The position numbers and the translations under genes are program-made. This document shows, one piece after another, positions 6,540 to 58,618 of a stretch of DNA of 64,000 nt (the first letter of the stretch is position 1; each line of letters opens with the position of its first letter). The notes under the pieces are model-generated. The model saw nothing but the letters and a program-made list of their open reading frames with translations, had not been told where the DNA came from and ran no database searches. This DNA comes from Candidatus Hodarchaeota archaeon (GTDB lineage Archaea > Asgardarchaeota > Lokiarchaeia > Sigyniarchaeales > SOKP01): assembly GCA_048887225.1 (NCBI GenBank), contig JBHLJY010000001.1, positions 100,335-164,334 of the forward strand. Direction: 5' to 3'.

Positions 6540-7361
6540 ATGATTGATAATATAAAGATTTTTGATTCACACATGCATTACATAGGAAAATTTAAAAAAA
6601 GGGATGAAACATTAATTGATTTTTTAGACAGATTTGGAATTGATAAAGCAGTTGTTATTACGTTAAATAAGGCTGCCAATAAAAATTTGCTAATTAGAAA
6701 CGATAAAGAATTTAGCGAGAAAGAATATGCTGAGAAAATGTTTGCGAAGACTCAATATGATCACGAGGAAATTAGAGAACTAATTAAAAAAAATTCAGAT
6801 AGATTAGTAGGGGTTTATTGGTTTAATCCGAGAATAGCAGATGACGAAGATTGGAAAATATTAAAAAGGTACATTAAAGACTACAATTTTAAAGGCGTAA
6901 AAATTCAGGCCTCGCTTGATAATTTGAAAATTCCAAAAGATTTGTTTCAATTAGCAGAATTTTGTATAGATTTCGACTTACCACTATTCTTTCATTTCGG
7001 ACCATCTTTTTTTTTCCAAGAGCCATTCCACGTTAAAGATGTTTATTCCTTAGTTAAAAAATACAGAGAGCTTAAATGTGTCGTTTTACATGCAGCATAC
7101 ACTATGGAATATTGTGTCAATTGTTTGAGATATTTTCCTAAGTGTTCTAATGTATATTTTGAAACGAGTTTATCTGTCCCGTATGGGATAAATATTTTGA
7201 TTAAAGTCATGGGGAATCACCGGGTATTATATGGTTCCGATTCACCAGCAGCAACTACACCAGACATAGAAATTAATAAAATCAGAATTCTTAATTTAGA
7301 TAATAACACATTAGAAAGTGTATTTTATAACAATATAAGCAATCTTATAGGTGAAACCTAA
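6540..7361 (+). CDS. metal-dependent amidohydrolase (amidohydrolase_2 / TIM-barrel) family protein
   Basis: 273 aa. It has the N-terminal IFDSHMH (HxH) motif, HAAYTMEY, and GSDSP near the C-terminus. Confidence 0.7.
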   Translation: MIDNIKIFDSHMHYIGKFKKRDETLIDFLDRFGIDKAVVITLNKAANKNLLIRNDKEFSEKEYAEKMFAKTQYDHEEIRELIKKNSDRLVGVYWFNPRIADDEDWKILKRYIKDYNFKGVKIQASLDNLKIPKDLFQLAEFCIDFDLPLFFHFGPSFFFQEPFHVKDVYSLVKKYRELKCVVLHAAYTMEYCVNCLRYFPKCSNVYFETSLSVPYGINILIKVMGNHRVLYGSDSPAATTPDIEINKIRILNLDNNTLESVFYNNISNLIGET

Positions 7362-8221
7362 TAAATCAATTTAAAATATTTGATTCACATATGCATTCTT
7401 ATGGCAAGTTCTTAAGTCCTAATAAAGATGTACTAGAATACATGGATAGATATAATGTTGAAAAAGCAATAATTACAACAGTGAATAGAGTAAAATTTTT
7501 TTCAGAAGAAAATAAAGACCAAATGAAAAGAATGTTTGAGAGTAAAAATATATCGGATATTTTAGATAATTTCAAAAAAGTTATTTTAAGAGGACAGCTC
7601 CCTCATCACGATGTAATAGATATCGCAAATAAAGCACCTGACAGAATTTTTAAACTTTTTTGGTTTAATCCTAATTTAAAACAAGAAGAGGAAGAATCAA
7701 ATTATCAAATTTTAGAAAATCATTTTAAACAAGGATTCTGTGGAGTAAAAATTCACCCAATGTTTCATATGTTTAAAATCCCTAGAGATATTTTAAAATT
7801 GGCCTCTTTTATTCAAGAATATAACAAAAATTTGATATTGTTCGTACATTCTCTACCTAAAGTCTCACTACATAGTGGGGTTTCAAGTAAAGATATAGCA
7901 AAATTAGCAATAAAGTTTCCTGATTTGCGAATAATTGTTGGGCATGCCGCATATTCAATGGAATATAGTATTGATGTAGCCTTTATTTTAAGAAAATTTA
8001 AGAATGTTTACTTTGAAACATCTGCTTCAGCATCATATGGGATATATAATATACTTAAAGCAGTTGGCCATAAACGCATATTATTCGGTTCTGACAGTCC
8101 AGTTGTATCTCCAGTTCAGCTTGAAATCGACAAAATATTGACATTGCCAATATCTAATATGGAAAAACAAGAGATATTATACAACAATGTAAGTAAGCTA
8201 CTTGAATTTTGTCGAAAATAA
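7361..8221 (+). CDS. metal-dependent amidohydrolase paralogue (probable non-ATG start)
   Basis: This is a paralogue of the 6540-7361 gene. The ORF track starts at ATG 7391, but the conserved KIFDSH of the HxH motif lies in frame upstream of it. An ATA at 7361 is preceded by GGTGA (7350-7354). The end coordinate is secure; the start is uncertain. Confidence 0.65.
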   Translation: MNQFKIFDSHMHSYGKFLSPNKDVLEYMDRYNVEKAIITTVNRVKFFSEENKDQMKRMFESKNISDILDNFKKVILRGQLPHHDVIDIANKAPDRIFKLFWFNPNLKQEEEESNYQILENHFKQGFCGVKIHPMFHMFKIPRDILKLASFIQEYNKNLILFVHSLPKVSLHSGVSSKDIAKLAIKFPDLRIIVGHAAYSMEYSIDVAFILRKFKNVYFETSASASYGIYNILKAVGHKRILFGSDSPVVSPVQLEIDKILTLPISNMEKQEILYNNVSKLLEFCRK

Positions 8222-37195: not shown

Positions 37196-38548
37196 CTATT
37201 TTAAATTATTTTGAATTTTTTGAATCCTAAGATCTAGTTTCTGTAATTGTTTATCATGTTTTCCATCATCATTTTCAGCAGATAAAATATTCTTAATTTG
37301 AAACAAATATTTTAGCGCAATTACATAGTCTTTTTTCTTTTCTGATTTGTTTGCTTGCTCCATGGCGAATTTTAATTCAACTTCTTTGTTGAGTTTAATA
37401 ATTTCTAAAATTTTAAACGAGATTTTACCCATCTCCACATCTAAATTGAATTCTCTTGCGTAATTAAGTGCCTTTTGATATTCAGTTAACGCCTCTTGAT
37501 ATGCAGCATTTTTTTCTGCGATTTCACCTTTCTTCACTGAAGAATGAATTTTTATATGAGCTTCTTCAAGACTCATATCATGACATTCAAAAATTATATC
37601 TTCCATATCTCTTATTTCCATGATTTTTTCAATTACATATTCCCTACTTTGTTTTTCTTGTCTTTCAGATTCTAATTCTTCCTTTTGATATTCAAAATTT
37701 TGCCAAATAATGATATTTTCTCTTATCATCTGATATATATTCCAAAGAATTTCTTCATTCGATATCACTCCTAATAGTTTTGAAGTTGTATCTATAAGTG
37801 GTGATATAAAAAAATATGTATCTTCTTTTAATAAATCCTTAGCACATTCATATATGGCTTTTTGAACTATAGAAAAATTTTCGATTTTATTTGGTGGTAT
37901 TTGAGTAGAGAGGGTGTGAGGATTAATCAGAGTTATTTCAAAAGTTTTTCCTACTAAGCTTCTAACTGGGTCTAGTATACTTAAATCACTTTTTTGCTCA
38001 AATTCCTTTAATTCATCTTGATAGTTATATTCACATATATTCGTGAAATTTAAGAGTAATTCTCTTAAATTATTTGAAGCTCTTCTATCAAGAATTAAAC
38101 AAATTCTGCATAATTCACCATTACACAAAAGAATATGAAAATTTTTATACTCAAACTCGTAAAATTTTTTATCTGGATTAATTTTATCTATTAACGTTAG
38201 TTCTTCGGACGAAAATGCTATATTTGCATGGATAAAACCAGATATTAGAGTAGCATCAATAGGTAAATCGCTTACAGCCATATTAAATGCGGGTACGCCT
38301 CCTTTAGTAAGAATTATTACATGTCTTATACTTGTTATATCTTGGTACTTCCTCCAAATATGTTTATATAATATTTTTTTTCTTTTTTGTTCTGAATCTT
38401 GTTCAATAGCTTCAATAATATCCACTAAAAAATTAGCGTCGCTAAATTTTTTCGATAAACACCTAAAGCAGTTTTCTGGATATCCCTCTTGACAAACCGA
38501 TTTGTCCACTCCGCAATCAAATCCCGAGATCAATTTAAAATATGTCAA
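37196..38548 (-). CDS. hypothetical protein: N-terminal Cys cluster, longin/roadblock-like alpha/beta domain (IDATLISGF), C-terminal TPR-like/coiled region
   Basis: 450 aa with a TTG start 7 nt after an AGGTGG SD. It has a CX6CX7CX2C cluster at residues 12-30. Residues about 75-185 share a domain with the C-terminus of the 48970-51324 protein. The C-terminus (AAYQEALTEYQKALNYA) is TPR-like. Confidence 0.6.
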   Translation of the reverse strand: MTYFKLISGFDCGVDKSVCQEGYPENCFRCLSKKFSDANFLVDIIEAIEQDSEQKRKKILYKHIWRKYQDITSIRHVIILTKGGVPAFNMAVSDLPIDATLISGFIHANIAFSSEELTLIDKINPDKKFYEFEYKNFHILLCNGELCRICLILDRRASNNLRELLLNFTNICEYNYQDELKEFEQKSDLSILDPVRSLVGKTFEITLINPHTLSTQIPPNKIENFSIVQKAIYECAKDLLKEDTYFFISPLIDTTSKLLGVISNEEILWNIYQMIRENIIIWQNFEYQKEELESERQEKQSREYVIEKIMEIRDMEDIIFECHDMSLEEAHIKIHSSVKKGEIAEKNAAYQEALTEYQKALNYAREFNLDVEMGKISFKILEIIKLNKEVELKFAMEQANKSEKKKDYVIALKYLFQIKNILSAENDDGKHDKQLQKLDLRIQKIQNNLK

Positions 38549-41805: not shown

Positions 41806-43713
41806 TTATAGGTATTTTTCTAATCCAAGGGTTTTAACTTTCTCTTGAGTAGGGAGACCATTCTCTTTATCCCACCCCCGCTCGTCATAATAATCGTTGA
41901 GCAATTGATTTGCGATTTCAGGTGTTATCTTAGTTTCGCCAAAAAAATCCAGAAAGTTAAGCGTATTTTTTCCAAATTGTAATGGTTCAAACCATCCTTT
42001 TGGAAAATTATCATCATTTCGAGTAAAACCTACTTTTGCGTTCAATAATTTAAGTAAATTCCAAGTGCGTTCGGCAGCTAACATCAAATCTTCAGGGAGC
42101 ATATCAAAACTAGTCACAGCATTAAAAAATTCTGTAGCAGATTCCAGACTATAGAAACGATTTATTTGAGCCCTAGCACATAGTCCAAGGGAAGTTAGCA
42201 CAGTATACCAATCCTCTGAGTAGCGAGTTAATCGTCCAACATTAATGACCATTTCTTGCATAGGAGGAGAGAAAATTCTATTTATAGCAGGATCAGGAAT
42301 GCCCATTCGCTTGAAATGAGACTTGAATTTCTCTGGGGAGGAACCTGCGCCAATATAAGTAGGGGAGCCTCCTGATGCTACATGAGCACCTTTAGGATTC
42401 ACTACTTGTTCAAATTCCATCGTGCCAAGGTGTAATAATCTTGGTTCAAAGACGATGTCTAAACCTTTTATAGCAAGTATTTTATCAGAAAGATCATCGT
42501 AAGCTTTAGTCAATTTACTGAATCCATCAGCCAAAATATCTCCAAACCCTTTTCTACGCGCAATCATTTCAATTGCTCGGATTAAAGTATTGTAATCCTG
42601 TTTAAATTCCATATTGGTGTTTTTTTTGGTTAAGATTCCGGTTTCATATAATTTGGTACATAAATCTAGAAGCGCTGTTACCATCATGTAATCTAAGCCA
42701 TATCTATTGCATAGATCACACGCTTTAATTGCCTCATAGTTATAATTTAAATCTTCAAGCTCCGTAAACAATAAAAAGGGATTAATAATCGAAGAGGTAT
42801 AATGAATAAGCCCTTTAAAATCACCCTCTTTAAGTTCAAGAATATCTTTATCACCCATTGGGCAAGATGGACAAGCTATGCGCCGTTTTTTCAATTCTTT
42901 AAGGTAAATACGTTCACTACATTGTCGAGCCTTTTGATTTTGTCCTGATGCTTTGAAGAGCATTCCTACTGGCAGACTTCTTAGCATTCCAAGGTCGTGC
43001 CAAGATTTTCTATGCGGGTAATTTCTGATGCGCTCAAAAAGCTTTTTATACAATTTATTAAATTCCTTTGGGCGTGCGATGGAAATGCCTTTTGTTCCTT
43101 TCGCAACAATTGCCTTAAGGTTCTTAGAACCCAAAACAGCTCCAAGTCCACCACGACCTAATGTTGAAGTTTTATCAATTAAAGCCATAGAAATTTTAAC
43201 TAAATTTTCTCCCGCTTGACCAATTGCAATAGTTCCGCAAGAGTTAAATTTTTTTCTGAGGGCGTTGTGCGTTTCTATGATATCTTTACCCCATAAATTT
43301 TCAGCATCGCATAGTTCAATGTGGTCGTTCCATATTAGCAAATATACTGGTTTTTCTGCTTTTCCCGATAATATCACATGGTCATATCCAGCGTGCTTTA
43401 AATTGAATCCGAAACTCATACTACCACAAGAATAGGCAATTGCCCCTGTCGAGGGGAATTTAGTGTTGCCAACAATTCGAGAAGAGCCAGGCGTAATAGT
43501 ACCGACTAAAGGACCTGTGCCTATTACAATAAAATTTTCAGAAGAAAGAGCGTCGATCTTGGGTTTAATCAATTCAGTGATAAGCTTAGTATTTATTCCG
43601 AGGGCCCCAATAAATTGTTTAACGTCGTCGAGGCCTAGTTGAGCGATTGAAATTTTGTTATTTGTTAAATCTATATTAAGAATATTGCCTGTATAACCGA
43701 ACCATTCCCTCAA
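41806..43713 (-). CDS. aor: aldehyde:ferredoxin oxidoreductase (tungsten/molybdopterin AOR family)
   Basis: It has the canonical N-terminus FGYTGNILNIDLT, plus GGLGAVLGSKNLKAIV and a CPSCPMG cluster region. I place the start at TTG 43713, directly after a GGAGGTGGAGG SD and overlapping the upstream ferredoxin stop (TTGA). The ORF track uses TTG 43752. Confidence 0.85.
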   Translation of the reverse strand: MREWFGYTGNILNIDLTNNKISIAQLGLDDVKQFIGALGINTKLITELIKPKIDALSSENFIVIGTGPLVGTITPGSSRIVGNTKFPSTGAIAYSCGSMSFGFNLKHAGYDHVILSGKAEKPVYLLIWNDHIELCDAENLWGKDIIETHNALRKKFNSCGTIAIGQAGENLVKISMALIDKTSTLGRGGLGAVLGSKNLKAIVAKGTKGISIARPKEFNKLYKKLFERIRNYPHRKSWHDLGMLRSLPVGMLFKASGQNQKARQCSERIYLKELKKRRIACPSCPMGDKDILELKEGDFKGLIHYTSSIINPFLLFTELEDLNYNYEAIKACDLCNRYGLDYMMVTALLDLCTKLYETGILTKKNTNMEFKQDYNTLIRAIEMIARRKGFGDILADGFSKLTKAYDDLSDKILAIKGLDIVFEPRLLHLGTMEFEQVVNPKGAHVASGGSPTYIGAGSSPEKFKSHFKRMGIPDPAINRIFSPPMQEMVINVGRLTRYSEDWYTVLTSLGLCARAQINRFYSLESATEFFNAVTSFDMLPEDLMLAAERTWNLLKLLNAKVGFTRNDDNFPKGWFEPLQFGKNTLNFLDFFGETKITPEIANQLLNDYYDERGWDKENGLPTQEKVKTLGLEKYL

Positions 43714-43955
43714 ACCTCCACCTCCTTTAGTTCTAAAGCACCATAAAGACAATGTTTAGCACACTGACCGCAACGAAGGCAGCTATTTAAAAAAGAGATT
43801 TTCGGACTTAAACCATGTCCATTTACCACTTGAATATGCGCTTCAGAGAGATTAAATTTTTTCGAGTGAAAAAGAGAACATGTTAATTGGCAAATCAAAC
43901 ATCCTGTACAATTATTTTCGTGGACAATAATAACTATGGAAATTTTTTTTGCCAT
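43710..43955 (-). CDS. 4Fe-4S ferredoxin-like protein (AOR-associated)
   Basis: 81 aa. It carries CTGCLICQLTC and CLRCGQCAKHC, and its stop overlaps the AOR start. Confidence 0.7.
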   Translation of the reverse strand: MAKKISIVIIVHENNCTGCLICQLTCSLFHSKKFNLSEAHIQVVNGHGLSPKISFLNSCLRCGQCAKHCLYGALELKEVEV

Positions 43956-44090: not shown

Positions 44091-45164
44091 CTAACGCCAC
44101 TCACAGCCACATTCGCCGCATCTCAATTTCTTGCCGTAAATTCGTGGATAAACCGAAATAAGGTTAGTTTTATCAAGGATTTCGTGAATAAATCTTCTAT
44201 TTGTATTACCACATTTAGGACAGCTTTTTCTCCCTACAGAGGATTCAATTGGTGTTTCTTTTTCCATTAGTAATGCTGATCCCGTTCCATATTCTTTATC
44301 GTAAAATGGGGTCGAGATTTTTGGTTTCTCCATTGATCTTTCTCTGATCATTCTTGCTACAATCCCTTTTGGAATTTCAGGAAATTTTTCAAAAGACCTT
44401 CTTTTCACTTTTACGCTTACAATTTCTTTTTCTTTCCGTTGGGTGATTTCAGGAGTCACTTCCACAATTCCTTTAAGGTTTAAATTTTCGATCTCTAATT
44501 CAGTAATTTTTTCGTTTAAGTCAATAATTAGTTTTTCTAATTTAGCAATGATAAATCTATCACTTTTTAGTTTTTCGCAATATTTATTAACTCGTTTGTT
44601 CTCCTCTTCTAAATTGGAGATTTTTTCGTTTAAACCAAGAATATGTTCTTCGAGATCAACAATATCTAACTGGTAATGCTTTTTGGCCTCATCACTTTTA
44701 GAAAGTAATTCTTTCTCCTTTTTAAGCTCTAATATTTCTTGGTTTATTGTTTCTTTGCTTTTAAGTAACTCTCTATTTTCCACTTGTAACTTACTAATTT
44801 GTTTTTCTAAATTAGCAATTTCTTCGTTTAACCAATCAATTTCTCCTTGTAGCTCTGTTTTTTCGTCCTTTATCTTCTCTATTGTATCGGATTTAATTCC
44901 TAAAACTATTAGATCATCAATATCTTTGCTTTTTTCTAATTCTGTAGCTAATTCATCGATTCTTTCTTTAAAAAGTTGTTTCTCGTGTTCTTTTTGAGCT
45001 AACTCTCGTTTTTGTGAAGCTATAATACTCTTAAAATTTAAAATCTCGTCGTTTTTTAATTTATTTATCACGTTGCGCAGTTTTTTAATAGTATTTTCCA
45101 ATTCAGAGCGAGTTTTTTGTTCGCTATCGTAAGAATCAAGCAAGTTTTCTATATCCTTAGTCAT
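44091..45164 (-). CDS. long coiled-coil protein with C-terminal zinc ribbon
   Basis: 357 aa. About 240 aa form heptad-rich E/K/L/N sequence (LEKQISKLQVENRELL, ISNLEEENKRV, ITELEIENLNLK). The C-terminus reads CPKCG-x28-CGECGC. Confidence 0.6.
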   Translation of the reverse strand: MTKDIENLLDSYDSEQKTRSELENTIKKLRNVINKLKNDEILNFKSIIASQKRELAQKEHEKQLFKERIDELATELEKSKDIDDLIVLGIKSDTIEKIKDEKTELQGEIDWLNEEIANLEKQISKLQVENRELLKSKETINQEILELKKEKELLSKSDEAKKHYQLDIVDLEEHILGLNEKISNLEEENKRVNKYCEKLKSDRFIIAKLEKLIIDLNEKITELEIENLNLKGIVEVTPEITQRKEKEIVSVKVKRRSFEKFPEIPKGIVARMIRERSMEKPKISTPFYDKEYGTGSALLMEKETPIESSVGRKSCPKCGNTNRRFIHEILDKTNLISVYPRIYGKKLRCGECGCEWR

Positions 45165-45331
45165 AATCCTAAAGCCCAGATTATTTTATAATTTTATAAA
45201 ATTAACCTTGTTTAAAAATTAATCAAGCTTATATTAAAAACTTAAGGAAACTAATCTAATTTTTAATTTCAACTTTTTTATTTATTTGGGCAAAATTACA
45301 GATAATATACGGGCAAAATTAATTATTAATG

Positions 45332-45775
45332 CTATTTTTCTAATATTTTTTTCAAATTTTCTCCTTCTTCAATCATATGCTGAGTAATAGATCTTACTGA
45401 CTTCTTAGCTAGTTTTGAAAGCAGCTTGCCTATACGAAAATCAAGAGTAGCAGTGAAAATACTACCATTTTCAGTAGGTTCTATTTCAAAGGTTCCGCCA
45501 TAGAGTAATAATTTTAATGATCCAACTGTCTTAAACTCAAATAATTTATTAGAGATAAGTCTTTTTAATTTAGCCCTTAGTTTAAGTAATTCACCTTTAA
45601 CTTCTTCTTCAGTATACATTATTGAACCGACTTCATTTGGTTCTCCTTTTTCCCAATTTGCTTTTATATGTGCTGGATGCCATTCGCAATAATTATCAAC
45701 AAAATTTAATAACCAATTCCAAATTTTTTCCGGCTGGACATTTATTTCAATAGATTCTCTAAGTGTTTTAATTAT
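45332..45775 (-). CDS. SRPBCC (START/polyketide-cyclase-like) family protein, probable non-ATG start
   Basis: The track ORF (95 aa from ATG 45619) lacks the N-terminal half of the fold. The in-frame upstream sequence IIKTLRESIEINVQPEKIWNWLLNFVDNYCEWHP is open back to the stop at 45779-45781. It contains no ATG, GTG or TTG. GGTGA precedes ATA (45775-45773) and ATT. Confidence 0.55.
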   Translation of the reverse strand: MIKTLRESIEINVQPEKIWNWLLNFVDNYCEWHPAHIKANWEKGEPNEVGSIMYTEEEVKGELLKLRAKLKRLISNKLFEFKTVGSLKLLLYGGTFEIEPTENGSIFTATLDFRIGKLLSKLAKKSVRSITQHMIEEGENLKKILEK

Positions 45776-45790
45776 TGTTCACCAAATATA

Positions 45791-46954
45791 TTATTTTTTC
45801 AATAATCCTTTATCTTTTCTTAATTTTCTTTTTTCTAAGCGTTTTTTGACAACACAATATACCTCGCCTGTCATCATTGTCATAAGACAAGAATTACAAC
45901 TAATACAGAGGGCTGGTGAAAGATCGCCGTTCTTCCAACGATTTGGGAGATCCGGCTCGTAAATCAATGGTCTACACATCGATATAAAATCTGAGTGATT
46001 CTCTTTGAGAATTTTTTCGGCAGATATAGGATTTTTAATTCCTCCTACGAGAATTAACTTACAATGATTCATTATCGGCTTTAATTCTTTAGCGGTTGGT
46101 AGAAAGTAATTCTCATCCTCTGGTGTTTTAATCATTTTGCTGGGGATTGCGTTTCTTACCTCTGTCATCATCTCACTACCTCCTCCACTCGGCTCAATCG
46201 CATCATATCCCGTGTCTACAAGAATTTTAGTAATTTTTTTTGCTTCAGTTATGGTGAGACCACCTGGAACAAAATCATCAGTTTGTAATTTGATAATAAT
46301 AGGAAAATTTTTTCCAACCTCGTCTCTAAGTTGATTGTAAATATCAACGAAGATTTTTGTTCGGCTTTTAGTATCTCCTCCATATTTATCTTCCCGTCTG
46401 TTTATGTGAGGTGAAATAAAATTGTTTAGTAAATACCCATGAGCGGCGTGTAATTGTACCATATCATAGCCAGTTTCGTAAGCCCTCATTCCTGCTCCTA
46501 CAAATTTTTCAATAATTTCTCCAATTTCTTCGGCTGTCAATTCTCGTGGTATTAAATTTGTTGCTTTATTTAGTATTGGTGAGGGGCCTACAGGAGGATA
46601 TTTAGGATGAATCCCTTGACGACCAATATGAACTAATTGGGCTGCAATTTTTACGCTAGAATAATTGTGAACCGCCTCAACTAATTGTTTTTGTCCTGAA
46701 ACATAAGAATCTTCATATAAATAAGCCTGATTTTGGCTACCTGAACTTTTAGGATCTACAGCAATAGCACCCGTGATTATTAATCCTGTGCCACCTTGAG
46801 CTAAGTCGGTATATAATTTTATAAGTCGATCGGTAACGTAGCCATCTTTAGTCGCCCTTTTTTCGTACGTCGCAGACCGGACAATTCTATTTTTAATTTG
46901 GACGTTTCTTATTTTTCCAGGACGAAAAAGATATTTTAATTCTATTTTAATCAC
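45791..46954 (-). CDS. Old Yellow Enzyme family NADH:flavin oxidoreductase (2,4-dienoyl-CoA reductase-like) with C-terminal Cys motif
   Basis: 387 aa with a GTG start. It carries IKNRIVRSAT and HAAHGYLLNNFISPHINRREDKYGG, with CISCNSC...C at the C-terminus. Confidence 0.85.
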   Translation of the reverse strand: MIKIELKYLFRPGKIRNVQIKNRIVRSATYEKRATKDGYVTDRLIKLYTDLAQGGTGLIITGAIAVDPKSSGSQNQAYLYEDSYVSGQKQLVEAVHNYSSVKIAAQLVHIGRQGIHPKYPPVGPSPILNKATNLIPRELTAEEIGEIIEKFVGAGMRAYETGYDMVQLHAAHGYLLNNFISPHINRREDKYGGDTKSRTKIFVDIYNQLRDEVGKNFPIIIKLQTDDFVPGGLTITEAKKITKILVDTGYDAIEPSGGGSEMMTEVRNAIPSKMIKTPEDENYFLPTAKELKPIMNHCKLILVGGIKNPISAEKILKENHSDFISMCRPLIYEPDLPNRWKNGDLSPALCISCNSCLMTMMTGEVYCVVKKRLEKRKLRKDKGLLKK

Positions 46955-47050
46955 CTAAATAAATTTATATACTAATATTTTTATTGTTTTTTGATTTATA
47001 ACATTCATATTTCAATAAAGTCAATACTTACAATTATAAAGGAAAGATAA

Positions 47051-57967: not shown

Positions 57968-58618
57968 TTACTCTTCTTTTTCTAATTTCGCAAACTCAAA
58001 CGCATAATAAGATTTAGTTCTATCAATAGGACCTATTTTTTTAACGTAATCTTTTTTTTTCTTGCTGTCTTTGTTAATCGCTTCTGTTGTAAACAATGCT
58101 ATTTCATATTCATCTTCAGGAGTATAATTTATTAGTTTATATACAAATCCTTCAACAAATTTCGCCGGACCGAACTTATTTGAAAATAAGATATAATTCT
58201 CTTTATCGATAAATTTTGGAAAAAAACCTAAATGTACACATAAATCAAGCTTATAATCTAAATTTTCTAATTGATTTTGAACCCTCGCTATATCATTTAT
58301 AAGGCGTGCAAACTTTATTCCCAACTCCATTTGAGCTTCTTCTTCTAAGTTTTCGAGAAATTTCTTAAATGTGGATCTTTTTATAACTATTAAATCCCTA
58401 TCGTCTAATGATCTAATAGAGCTTTGATCTATTATCAAATATTTTGCCATTTCCAAATAGTTTCTAATGACATTAGCTTTAGTTAAGTGCTTTCTGTCTT
58501 TTATTTCTTCTAAGATTTGATCCAATCCTTGATCAATTCTAACTGTTAAAACATTAGTTACCTCTTTTTTTTCAGAATTTTTACCCTTTTCATCAATACT
58601 CATTCTTTTATCCTCCAT
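57968..58618 (-). CDS. ribbon-helix-helix (CopG-like) domain protein with uncharacterised C-terminal domain
   Basis: 216 aa. LTVRIDQGLDQILEEIKDRKHLTKANVIRNYLEMA fits an RHH fold. Confidence 0.5.
   Translation of the reverse strand: MEDKRMSIDEKGKNSEKKEVTNVLTVRIDQGLDQILEEIKDRKHLTKANVIRNYLEMAKYLIIDQSSIRSLDDRDLIVIKRSTFKKFLENLEEEAQMELGIKFARLINDIARVQNQLENLDYKLDLCVHLGFFPKFIDKENYILFSNKFGPAKFVEGFVYKLINYTPEDEYEIALFTTEAINKDSKKKKDYVKKIGPIDRTKSYYAFEFAKLEKEE

Follow-up and report, generated by a model that had tools for sequence, protein, structure and literature searches.

A Shine-Dalgarno-led ATT as the probable start codon of an SRPBCC-family gene in an Asgard archaeon

We analysed a 64,000-nt stretch of contig JBHLJY010000001.1 from a Candidatus Hodarchaeota archaeon (hereafter the window), in which a gene of the SRPBCC family lies on the minus strand. 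The gene would be called as an open reading frame (ORF) of 95 aa from an ATG at 45619-45617, but the frame stays open upstream of this ATG for 53 codons, back to a TGA at 45781-45779. Direct reading of the sequence found no in-frame ATG, GTG or TTG in those 53 codons. They translate to TIIKTLRESIEINVQPEKIWNWLLNFVDNYCEWHPAHIKANWEKGEPNEVGSI, followed by M. The first codons after the TGA are ACA, ATA (45775-45773) and ATT (45772-45770); counting from the ATT, 51 codons pass before a canonical start is reached. A GGTGA motif stands 3 nt before the ATA and 6 nt before the ATT, and reading of the sequence before the internal ATG 45619 found no GGTG or GGAG motif. A preliminary description of the locus had proposed initiation at ATA or ATT, and its account of the open frame, the GGTGA spacing and the internal ATG that no Shine-Dalgarno (SD) motif precedes agrees with what we read. 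The features of the locus are the following:

45332-45772, minus strand: full coding sequence proposed for the SRPBCC gene, 146 codons, from ATT (45772-45770) to the TAG stop (45334-45332)
45770-45772, minus strand: ATT, the proposed near-cognate start codon, which aligns with the ATG of orthologues and lies 6 nt after GGTGA
45773-45775, minus strand: ATA, the alternative near-cognate codon, start of the 147-aa product MFX0186228.1 in the GenBank annotation, 3 nt after GGTGA
45779-45783, minus strand: SD motif GGTGA, the last three bases of which are the in-frame TGA that closes the frame upstream
45620-45769, minus strand: the N-terminal 50 codons after the start, which hold no canonical start codon and cover the fold from strand 1 through helices 1 and 2 and strand 2 as far as the loop before strand 3
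45617-45619, minus strand: internal ATG from which the 95-aa ORF is read; in the 146-aa product it is Met52, inside strand 3
45791-46954, minus strand: co-directional upstream gene for an OYE-type NADH:flavin oxidoreductase (PF00724, E 8e-61)

The GGTGA motif is complementary to the 3′ end of archaeal 16S rRNA (UCACC). The two strands of the window together hold 84 copies where 52 would be expected, and because this amounts to about one copy per 1,500 nt per strand, an accidental GGTGA at a start-compatible distance is unlikely. The window contains no rRNA gene, and a tRNA scan of it returned 0 tRNA genes. The OYE gene ends with a TAA (45793-45791) situated 18 nt before the ATT and, by chance, in the same frame as the SRPBCC gene, the codons from one to the other being TAA-TAT-ATT-TGG-TGA.

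The long read belongs to a well-defined family. As a 148-aa sequence it matched PF10604 (Polyketide_cyc2) with an E value of 2.9e-12 and 47.5 bits over profile positions 4-129 of 142, whereas the 95-aa ORF scored 17.4 bits, below the cut-off of 27.4. A protein search (5.8 billion sequences) returned 103 relatives of the long read. About 80 of them show 62-73 % identity, are 146-149 aa long, cover 98-99 % of the read and begin with MKTL[RK]ESIEI. These orthologues come from Asgard metagenome-assembled genomes (MAGs; labelled Promethearchaeota, Loki-, Thor-, Hod-, Odin- and Hermod-), and the subfamily is essentially Asgard-specific at identities of at least 60 %.

An AlphaFold2 model of the 148-aa read, built with the orthologue alignment, shows the full helix-grip topology (predicted local distance difference test, pLDDT, 91.6; predicted template modelling score, pTM, 0.85). 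The modelled elements are a strand at 2-12, helices at 16-24 and 26-33, strands at 37-44, 53-60, 63-75, 79-85, 92-101 and 106-116, and a helix at 118-147. In this model the internal Met has residue number 54 and falls within strand 3, and upstream of it lie strand 1, helix 1, helix 2 and strand 2, that is two of the seven strands and two of the three helices. The family-invariant residues W20, Y30, W33, H34 and W42 of the orthologue alignment are found in this N-terminal segment. Orthologues carry I, L, M or F at the position of the internal Met, which is therefore not conserved as a start. A Foldseek search of the PDB returned only SRPBCC/Bet v 1-type structures (7tmu, 7wa9, 2rer and PR-10 proteins), with template modelling (TM) scores of 0.7-0.82 for 7tmu, 2rer and PR-10 (best 0.82). 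TcmN ARO/CYC (2rer), YPO0625 (7tmu), MSMEG_5634 (7wa9) and PR-10/Bet v 1 proteins share with the window protein the order strand, two helices, six strands and a long C-terminal helix (TM 0.79-0.82); the window protein differs from these solved PF10604-type helix-grip structures in sequence, with only 12-21 % identity to any of them. The conserved aromatic and His residues W20, Y30, W33, H34, W42, Y55 and H134 may hint at a ligand cavity, which is only suggestive. The upstream stretch had been taken in the preliminary description for the N-terminal part of a START/SRPBCC domain, and this is borne out by the Pfam threshold, which the long form alone passes, by the complete fold predicted for that form and by the orthologue alignment, where the 51-53 upstream codons are strongly conserved at the protein level in relatives.

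To place the start codon we relied on relatives, whose DNA loci are given L-numbers and whose database proteins are given P-numbers. The Met of the orthologues falls exactly on the ATT 45772-45770, where the window reads I-K-T-L-R-E-S against M-K-T-L-R-E-S. We read the orthologue DNA at 22 loci (14 reference genomes and 8 metagenomes), and the equivalent codon is ATG in all 22, with aGTGA or GGTGA 5-6 nt 5′ of it in many of them. The geometry of the window, GGTGA-acaata-ATT, has an SD spacing of 6 nt as in these orthologues. Searches for closer relatives found no locus above 70 % identity in the metagenome contig scan and a best identity of 73 % among genome contigs; the strain of L102 and L103 was reached through the listing of a protein cluster. 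L001, from a JGI metagenome, is 91.1 % identical to the window at the nucleotide level over 3.9 kb with the same gene order, and its start region reads ...TGGTGAACAAAAATTAAAACG.... L102 (SRA run SRR24270839) represents a third strain, L103 (SRA run SRR30758841) is the same strain with an identical gene, and both read AAA-ATT in the start region. The string TGGTGAACA-N3-ATT is common to these four contigs from four samples and three strains (window, L001 and L102/L103).

The window's ATA 45775-45773 is AAA in L001, L102 and L103, with ATT and GGTGA kept in all, which makes the ATA a recent change private to the window strain. ATA was therefore rejected as a conserved start. The ATT is the likely start codon, because it aligns with the ATG of the orthologues, has the SD spacing of the family and is kept in the clade, and the ATA is not. 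The database protein P0224 (MFX0186228.1, 'SRPBCC family protein', 147 aa, MIKTLRES...) is the translation of the window from the ATA, and this GenBank long form probably begins one codon too far upstream. From the earlier proposal of an ATA or ATT start, the near-cognate start as such is thus supported, as is ATT by the orthologue alignment and its conservation in the clade; ATA is the less likely of the two, being AAA in the other strains.

ATT at the orthologous start was also found in two further SRPBCC lineages, L099 and L100/L101. L099, of the P0081 cluster, reads GGTGttttacaaATT AAA ACT CTA AAA GAA, and between its upstream stop and the internal ATG there is no in-frame canonical start. 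The four members of this cluster have all been called with the same truncation, at 137 aa; L099 is the one whose DNA was read. L100/L101 (P0080, GCA_019058355.1) read GGGTGAtatacATT AAA ACG CTT with the geometry GGGTGA-tatac-ATT, and the gene caller used a GTG inside the SD motif. By neighbour joining, all three ATT lineages have a sister of their own that starts with M (P0011, P0066 and P0079), which suggests three separate ATG-to-ATT changes, although this count is tentative.

The short forms in the databases are, judging from the DNA behind them, gene-caller artefacts of 95-99 aa and not stand-alone proteins. P0226 (95 aa) and P0001 (126 aa) were rejected as stand-alone forms after reading the DNA of L102/L103 and L001, respectively, which carry the same ATT-started open frame; P0227 (95 aa) and P0225 (126 aa) are calls on close relatives. 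P0086 (98 aa; L002/L003:2848-3000) was rejected as well: its frame opens with a normal ATG AAA ACC CTT AGG GAA, after which one extra A shifts it, and the gene is either a pseudogene or the site of a homopolymer error that two assemblies share. The preliminary description had named two findings that would speak against it, namely a 95-aa form conserved on its own and an upstream region unconserved in relatives. We looked at both, and the short forms are artefacts as just described, while the upstream region is strongly conserved as protein.

We next compared the window with L001 by the method of Nei and Gojobori (NG86), which gives the synonymous (Sd) and non-synonymous (Nd) differences and the ratio of the corresponding rates (dN/dS):

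N-terminal 51 codons of the SRPBCC gene: Sd 4, Nd 1, dN/dS 0.05
C-terminal 95 codons of the SRPBCC gene: Sd 7, Nd 4, dN/dS 0.14
OYE gene: Sd 43.5, Nd 30.5, dN/dS 0.17
hydrolase gene: Sd 29.5, Nd 35.5, dN/dS 0.27
coiled-coil gene: Sd 22.5, Nd 51.5, dN/dS 0.53

The value for the whole SRPBCC gene is 0.11, below the neighbouring genes. When the N-terminal changes between the same two sequences are read in either other frame, all 4 counted are non-synonymous. Across the three strains the 51 codons from the ATT (45772-45620) contain seven variable sites, which fall on codon positions 1, 2 and 3 one, zero and six times; six of the changes are synonymous and one is non-synonymous. At least six of seven sites at third positions would have P ~0.007 under uniform use. 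If the segment were untranslated (dS ~0.15, 125 non-synonymous sites), roughly 20 non-synonymous differences would be expected, and 1 was seen. Neutral DNA is not conserved between the window strain and L001, since the non-coding DNA just 3′ of the gene is identical at only 97 of 167 positions and has a large deletion. By the pattern of these substitutions, the upstream segment is protein-coding in this frame and under purifying selection, and since it has no canonical start, it would be entered from a near-cognate codon.

A similar start is found elsewhere in the window, in the second of two tandem amidohydrolase genes:

7350-7363, plus strand: GGTGA (7350-7354), six bases and ATA (7361-7363), the proposed start of the second tandem amidohydrolase (PF04909; window 7350-8221)

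The ATA and the TAA stop of the first paralogue share one base. The gene is called from an ATG at 7391, the Met of which stands between the two His of the conserved D-[SA]-H-x-H motif, and the resulting 276-aa GenBank protein MFX0186194.1 is the window's truncated form, which loses the first His of the metal-binding HxH. Distant orthologues (~60 % identity) have 285-293 aa with the Met about 10 residues before KIFD[AS]H; members of the nearer clade (72-93 % identity) are called at 269-276 aa, two loci at 269 aa. In six diverged loci (window and L094-L098) an invariant ATA stands 6 nt after GGTGA or GGTGG, and none of the six has a canonical start before the essential HxH motif, which lies before or on the first ATG. 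The codon preceding the ATA varies, being CTA in the window, CCA in L094 and L095, CCC in L096 and TAG in L097 and L098. In L097 the motif is H-L-H and the internal ATG is therefore absent. The genes of L097 and L098 follow a divergent intergenic region with no co-directional upstream gene, so this start needs no coupling to an upstream gene. The Pfam match begins at profile position 66 and is silent on the HxH region, and the argument rests on the orthologue alignment, by which the second amidohydrolase most likely starts at ATA 7361. The preliminary description had regarded this gene and the SRPBCC gene as two instances of one pattern, and the invariance of the ATA in six loci favours its view. 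A separate observation concerns P0234, a member of the P0104 cluster. At 287 aa it is a variant of the second amidohydrolase with the N-terminus MIDNIKIFDSHMH, which is identical to that of the window's first paralogue (6540); the two tandem genes may have undergone gene conversion, or the assembly may be chimeric.

Taken together, these comparisons point to a gene for a normal 146-residue SRPBCC helix-grip, presumably small-molecule-binding protein, in which this lineage has replaced an ancestral ATG start by an ATT that is translated behind the SD motif. We assign this whole reading a probability of roughly three in four, and among the explanations considered, near-cognate initiation is the only one that fits the conservation pattern of the aligned sequences. 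The SRPBCC gene probably shares a bicistronic mRNA with the OYE reductase gene upstream. Its SD motif GGUGA would pair with the 3′ end of the 16S rRNA, and this pairing would place the AUU, 6 nt downstream, in the P site. There the initiator Met-tRNA would read AUU with a third-position mismatch, and the protein would still begin with Met, although the yield is expected to be much lower than from AUG. Re-initiation by ribosomes that have just terminated on the OYE gene, 18 nt upstream, may contribute, but this is not required. Divergent intergenic regions precede both the ATT-started copy in L100 and the ATA-started amidohydrolases in L097 and L098, and since these ATT- and ATA-started relatives are first genes in their units, upstream coupling is no general requirement. 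The weak start may be either adaptive, giving less SRPBCC protein relative to OYE, or merely tolerated.

Several other explanations have to be considered. The gene could be translated from the ATA, alone or alongside the ATT, to give the 147-aa product MFX0186228.1. This ATA is the first near-cognate codon after the stop, the N-terminus 'MIKTLRES...' of P0224 corresponds to the window read from it, and an ATA start is well supported for the amidohydrolase of the same window. However, a codon that is AAA in the other two strains cannot be a start maintained by selection, its distance of 3 nt from GGTGA is shorter than the 5-6 nt usual in the family, and the orthologous Met aligns with ATT instead, so we regard translation from the ATA as rather unlikely. 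Loss of the start could also have silenced the gene, leaving a decaying relic or no protein at all. The loss of ATG is indeed derived, with ATG at 22 of 22 other orthologue loci, and near-cognate starts are inefficient in model systems. Such a pseudogene is nevertheless very unlikely, because the frame is intact in four contigs, including L001 at ~9 % divergence over 3.9 kb, the dN/dS of the whole gene (0.11) is lower than that of its neighbours with the changes concentrated at third positions, the SD motif and ATT are invariant next to heavily diverged non-coding DNA, and the same ATT state persists in two further lineages.

That the 95-aa ORF from ATG 45619 is a real stand-alone product seems highly improbable. 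It is the sole ORF with a canonical start, and 95-aa products have been called in two relatives (P0226 and P0227), but the DNA read for P0226 (L102/L103) has the same conserved open frame upstream. Moreover, no SD motif precedes the ATG, its Met sits inside strand 3 at a position that is I, L, F or M in orthologues, and the product would lose two strands, two helices and five invariant residues and stay below the Pfam threshold. It would also leave the frame-specific selection on the upstream codons unexplained. Read-through from the OYE gene into a fusion protein, for which the in-phase arrangement TAA-TAT-ATT-TGG-TGA could be cited, needs two different stop codons, TAA and TGA, to be passed, and the orthologues exist as separate proteins, the gene neighbours of which are often unrelated. 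That the ATT is a mistake for ATG in assembly or sequencing is excluded by its presence in four independent assemblies from four samples. Together we give read-through and error next to no credence.

Initiation at ATT has points against it as well. The N-terminal substitution counts are small (7 variable sites), and the exact start codon in the window strain is not settled by its sequence, where the ATA stands directly before the ATT. In L100 an in-frame GTG 3 codons upstream of the ATT, inside the SD motif, could serve as the start, and the neighbour-joining tree behind the three independent events was built from ~120 alignment columns and is not robust. From the literature, reviews of archaeal initiation give only AUG, GUG and UUG (PMC7531240), aIF1 discriminates against non-canonical starts (PMC8211752), and in E. 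coli AUU and AUA yield 1-2 % of the output of AUG (bioRxiv 10.1101/063800).

Weak start codons are common among the SD-led genes of the window. The genes at 38548, 39523 and 43713 start with TTG, the one at 7361 with ATA and the one at 45772 with ATT, and ATG is found at 38, at 58603 and at the start of the 4645 ORF. We also scanned the window and the Asgard loci for GGTG[AG] followed by 4-7 nt and a codon at the 5′ ends of long ORFs, a scan that is biased in that most loci had been fetched for the SRPBCC and amidohydrolase genes. The sole independent match was a subtilase (PF00082) ORF of 601 codons, L093:3540-5356 on the plus strand. This ORF begins GGTGAaaaaaaATA right after a stop, and its first in-frame canonical start, a TTG, lies 61 codons downstream. 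It is a candidate for an ATA start on an unrelated Asgard contig, with Pfam silent on the first 61 codons.

Regarding the neighbouring genes, the order OYE-SRPBCC is repeated in L001 and L102, in both of which the OYE stop is also 18 nt upstream. The OYE protein is 100 % identical to the NCBI protein P0236. Its called GTG start (46954) sits within a GGTGA (46955-46951), and an ATA (46945) follows 5 nt further on (window 46940-46957, minus strand); the same start region is present in L001. The N-termini of OYE orthologues are of two types, M[IV]KIELK... and MELK..., and the Met of the latter aligns with the ATA 46945. The true start of the OYE gene is ambiguous in this alignment, and it may be a third near-cognate case. 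Just 3′ of the SRPBCC stop there are two copies of TAATTTTGCCC about 20 nt apart (window ~45288-45322, minus strand), which could be a terminator or a regulatory repeat; the stretch holding both is deleted in L001.

The downstream gene (window 44091-45164, minus strand) encodes a highly charged, coiled-coil-like protein of 357 aa with a zinc-ribbon-like motif CPxCG...CGxCG at its C-terminus. It is the fast-evolving coiled-coil gene of the comparison above (dN/dS 0.53 between strains), and the copy in L001 has a weak Prefoldin_2 match. Further on, at 43713-43730 on the minus strand, begins a gene that by its N-terminus LREWFGYTGNILNIDLT and by the syntenic gene of L102, which has AFOR_N and AFOR_C domains, appears to be aldehyde:ferredoxin oxidoreductase-like. 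Its apparent start is the TTG at 43713 behind an unusually long SD-like run, GGAGGAGGTGGAGGT; the ORF opens with an earlier TTG, which is not the likely start.

The near-cognate cases in the window number 2 in roughly 50 genes. The suggestion of the preliminary description that such starts are used occasionally in this organism is plausible on that basis. A wider claim would be that Asgard archaea of the Lokiarchaeia type have a relaxed start rule for SD-led genes, with AUU and AUA as regular, selected starts in ~1-4 % of genes, acting as expression throttles, and with a eukaryote-like tolerance of near-cognate starts that predates eukaryogenesis. We consider this claim possible but doubtful. 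If it were true, the share of AUU and AUA starts would be far above that of E. coli, and most annotations of Asgard MAGs made by callers restricted to ATG, GTG and TTG would hold a systematic class of N-terminally truncated proteins. Such callers do cut these genes, as the SRPBCC relatives recorded as fragments of 95, 126 and 137 aa demonstrate, and truncated entries could introduce errors into predicted structures, protein families and metabolic reconstructions of Asgard archaea. The SRPBCC and amidohydrolase genes add two cases of AUU and AUA initiation, both backed by comparison and by signs of selection, from the archaea most closely related to eukaryotes, among which SD motifs are reportedly rare (for Lokiarchaea, PMC7531240, PMC12993045). 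Should the frequency in the window hold genome-wide, the stringency of start-codon choice in Asgard archaea becomes a concrete, testable question.

Starts of this kind have precedents. Within the window the closest is the amidohydrolase at 7361, which like the SRPBCC gene has GGTGA, six bases and a near-cognate codon and is truncated by callers that accept only ATG, GTG and TTG; it differs in using ATA instead of ATT, in the depth of its clade (72-93 % aa identity, six loci) and in its GenBank form, which is still truncated. In E. coli the only confirmed AUU genes are infC, encoding IF3, and pcnB (bioRxiv 10.1101/063800). As in the SRPBCC gene, a conserved AUU stands there in place of AUG behind an SD motif; it is read by the initiator tRNA, as the AUU of the SRPBCC gene would be, with low output expected. 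However, the AUU of infC serves an autoregulatory loop in which IF3 itself rejects AUU, whereas the SRPBCC product is no initiation factor, and infC and pcnB are bacterial genes while the SRPBCC host is an archaeon with the eukaryote-type factors aIF1, aIF1A and aIF2. Eukaryotes also use one-mismatch codons (AUU, AUA, CUG and others) at reduced efficiency, policed by eIF1, of which aIF1 is the homologue. Near-cognate use in eukaryotes depends on scanning and Kozak context, whereas the SRPBCC codon would be positioned by the SD-antiSD duplex, as in bacteria.

Among archaea, ribosome profiling of Haloferax volcanii found ~30 % of putative alternative starts to be near-cognate, and these were set aside (PMC7261190). 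For the tubulin AtubA of Kariarchaeaceae, which are Asgard archaea, a rare ATT start was inferred from the fold and the ribosome-binding site (Sci Adv 2026, PMC13394414). That case comes from the same superphylum and follows the same reasoning: the deposited protein is without its first strand, and an upstream ATT restores both the strand and the distance to the ribosome-binding site. AtubA is one gene in one MAG with no comparative test, whereas the SRPBCC ATT is conserved between strains, opens a frame under purifying selection, recurs in three lineages and is joined by a second gene, with ATA, in the same genome. The SRPBCC ATT involves no new mechanism; it adds another, better-supported example to a kind of exception that is already known.

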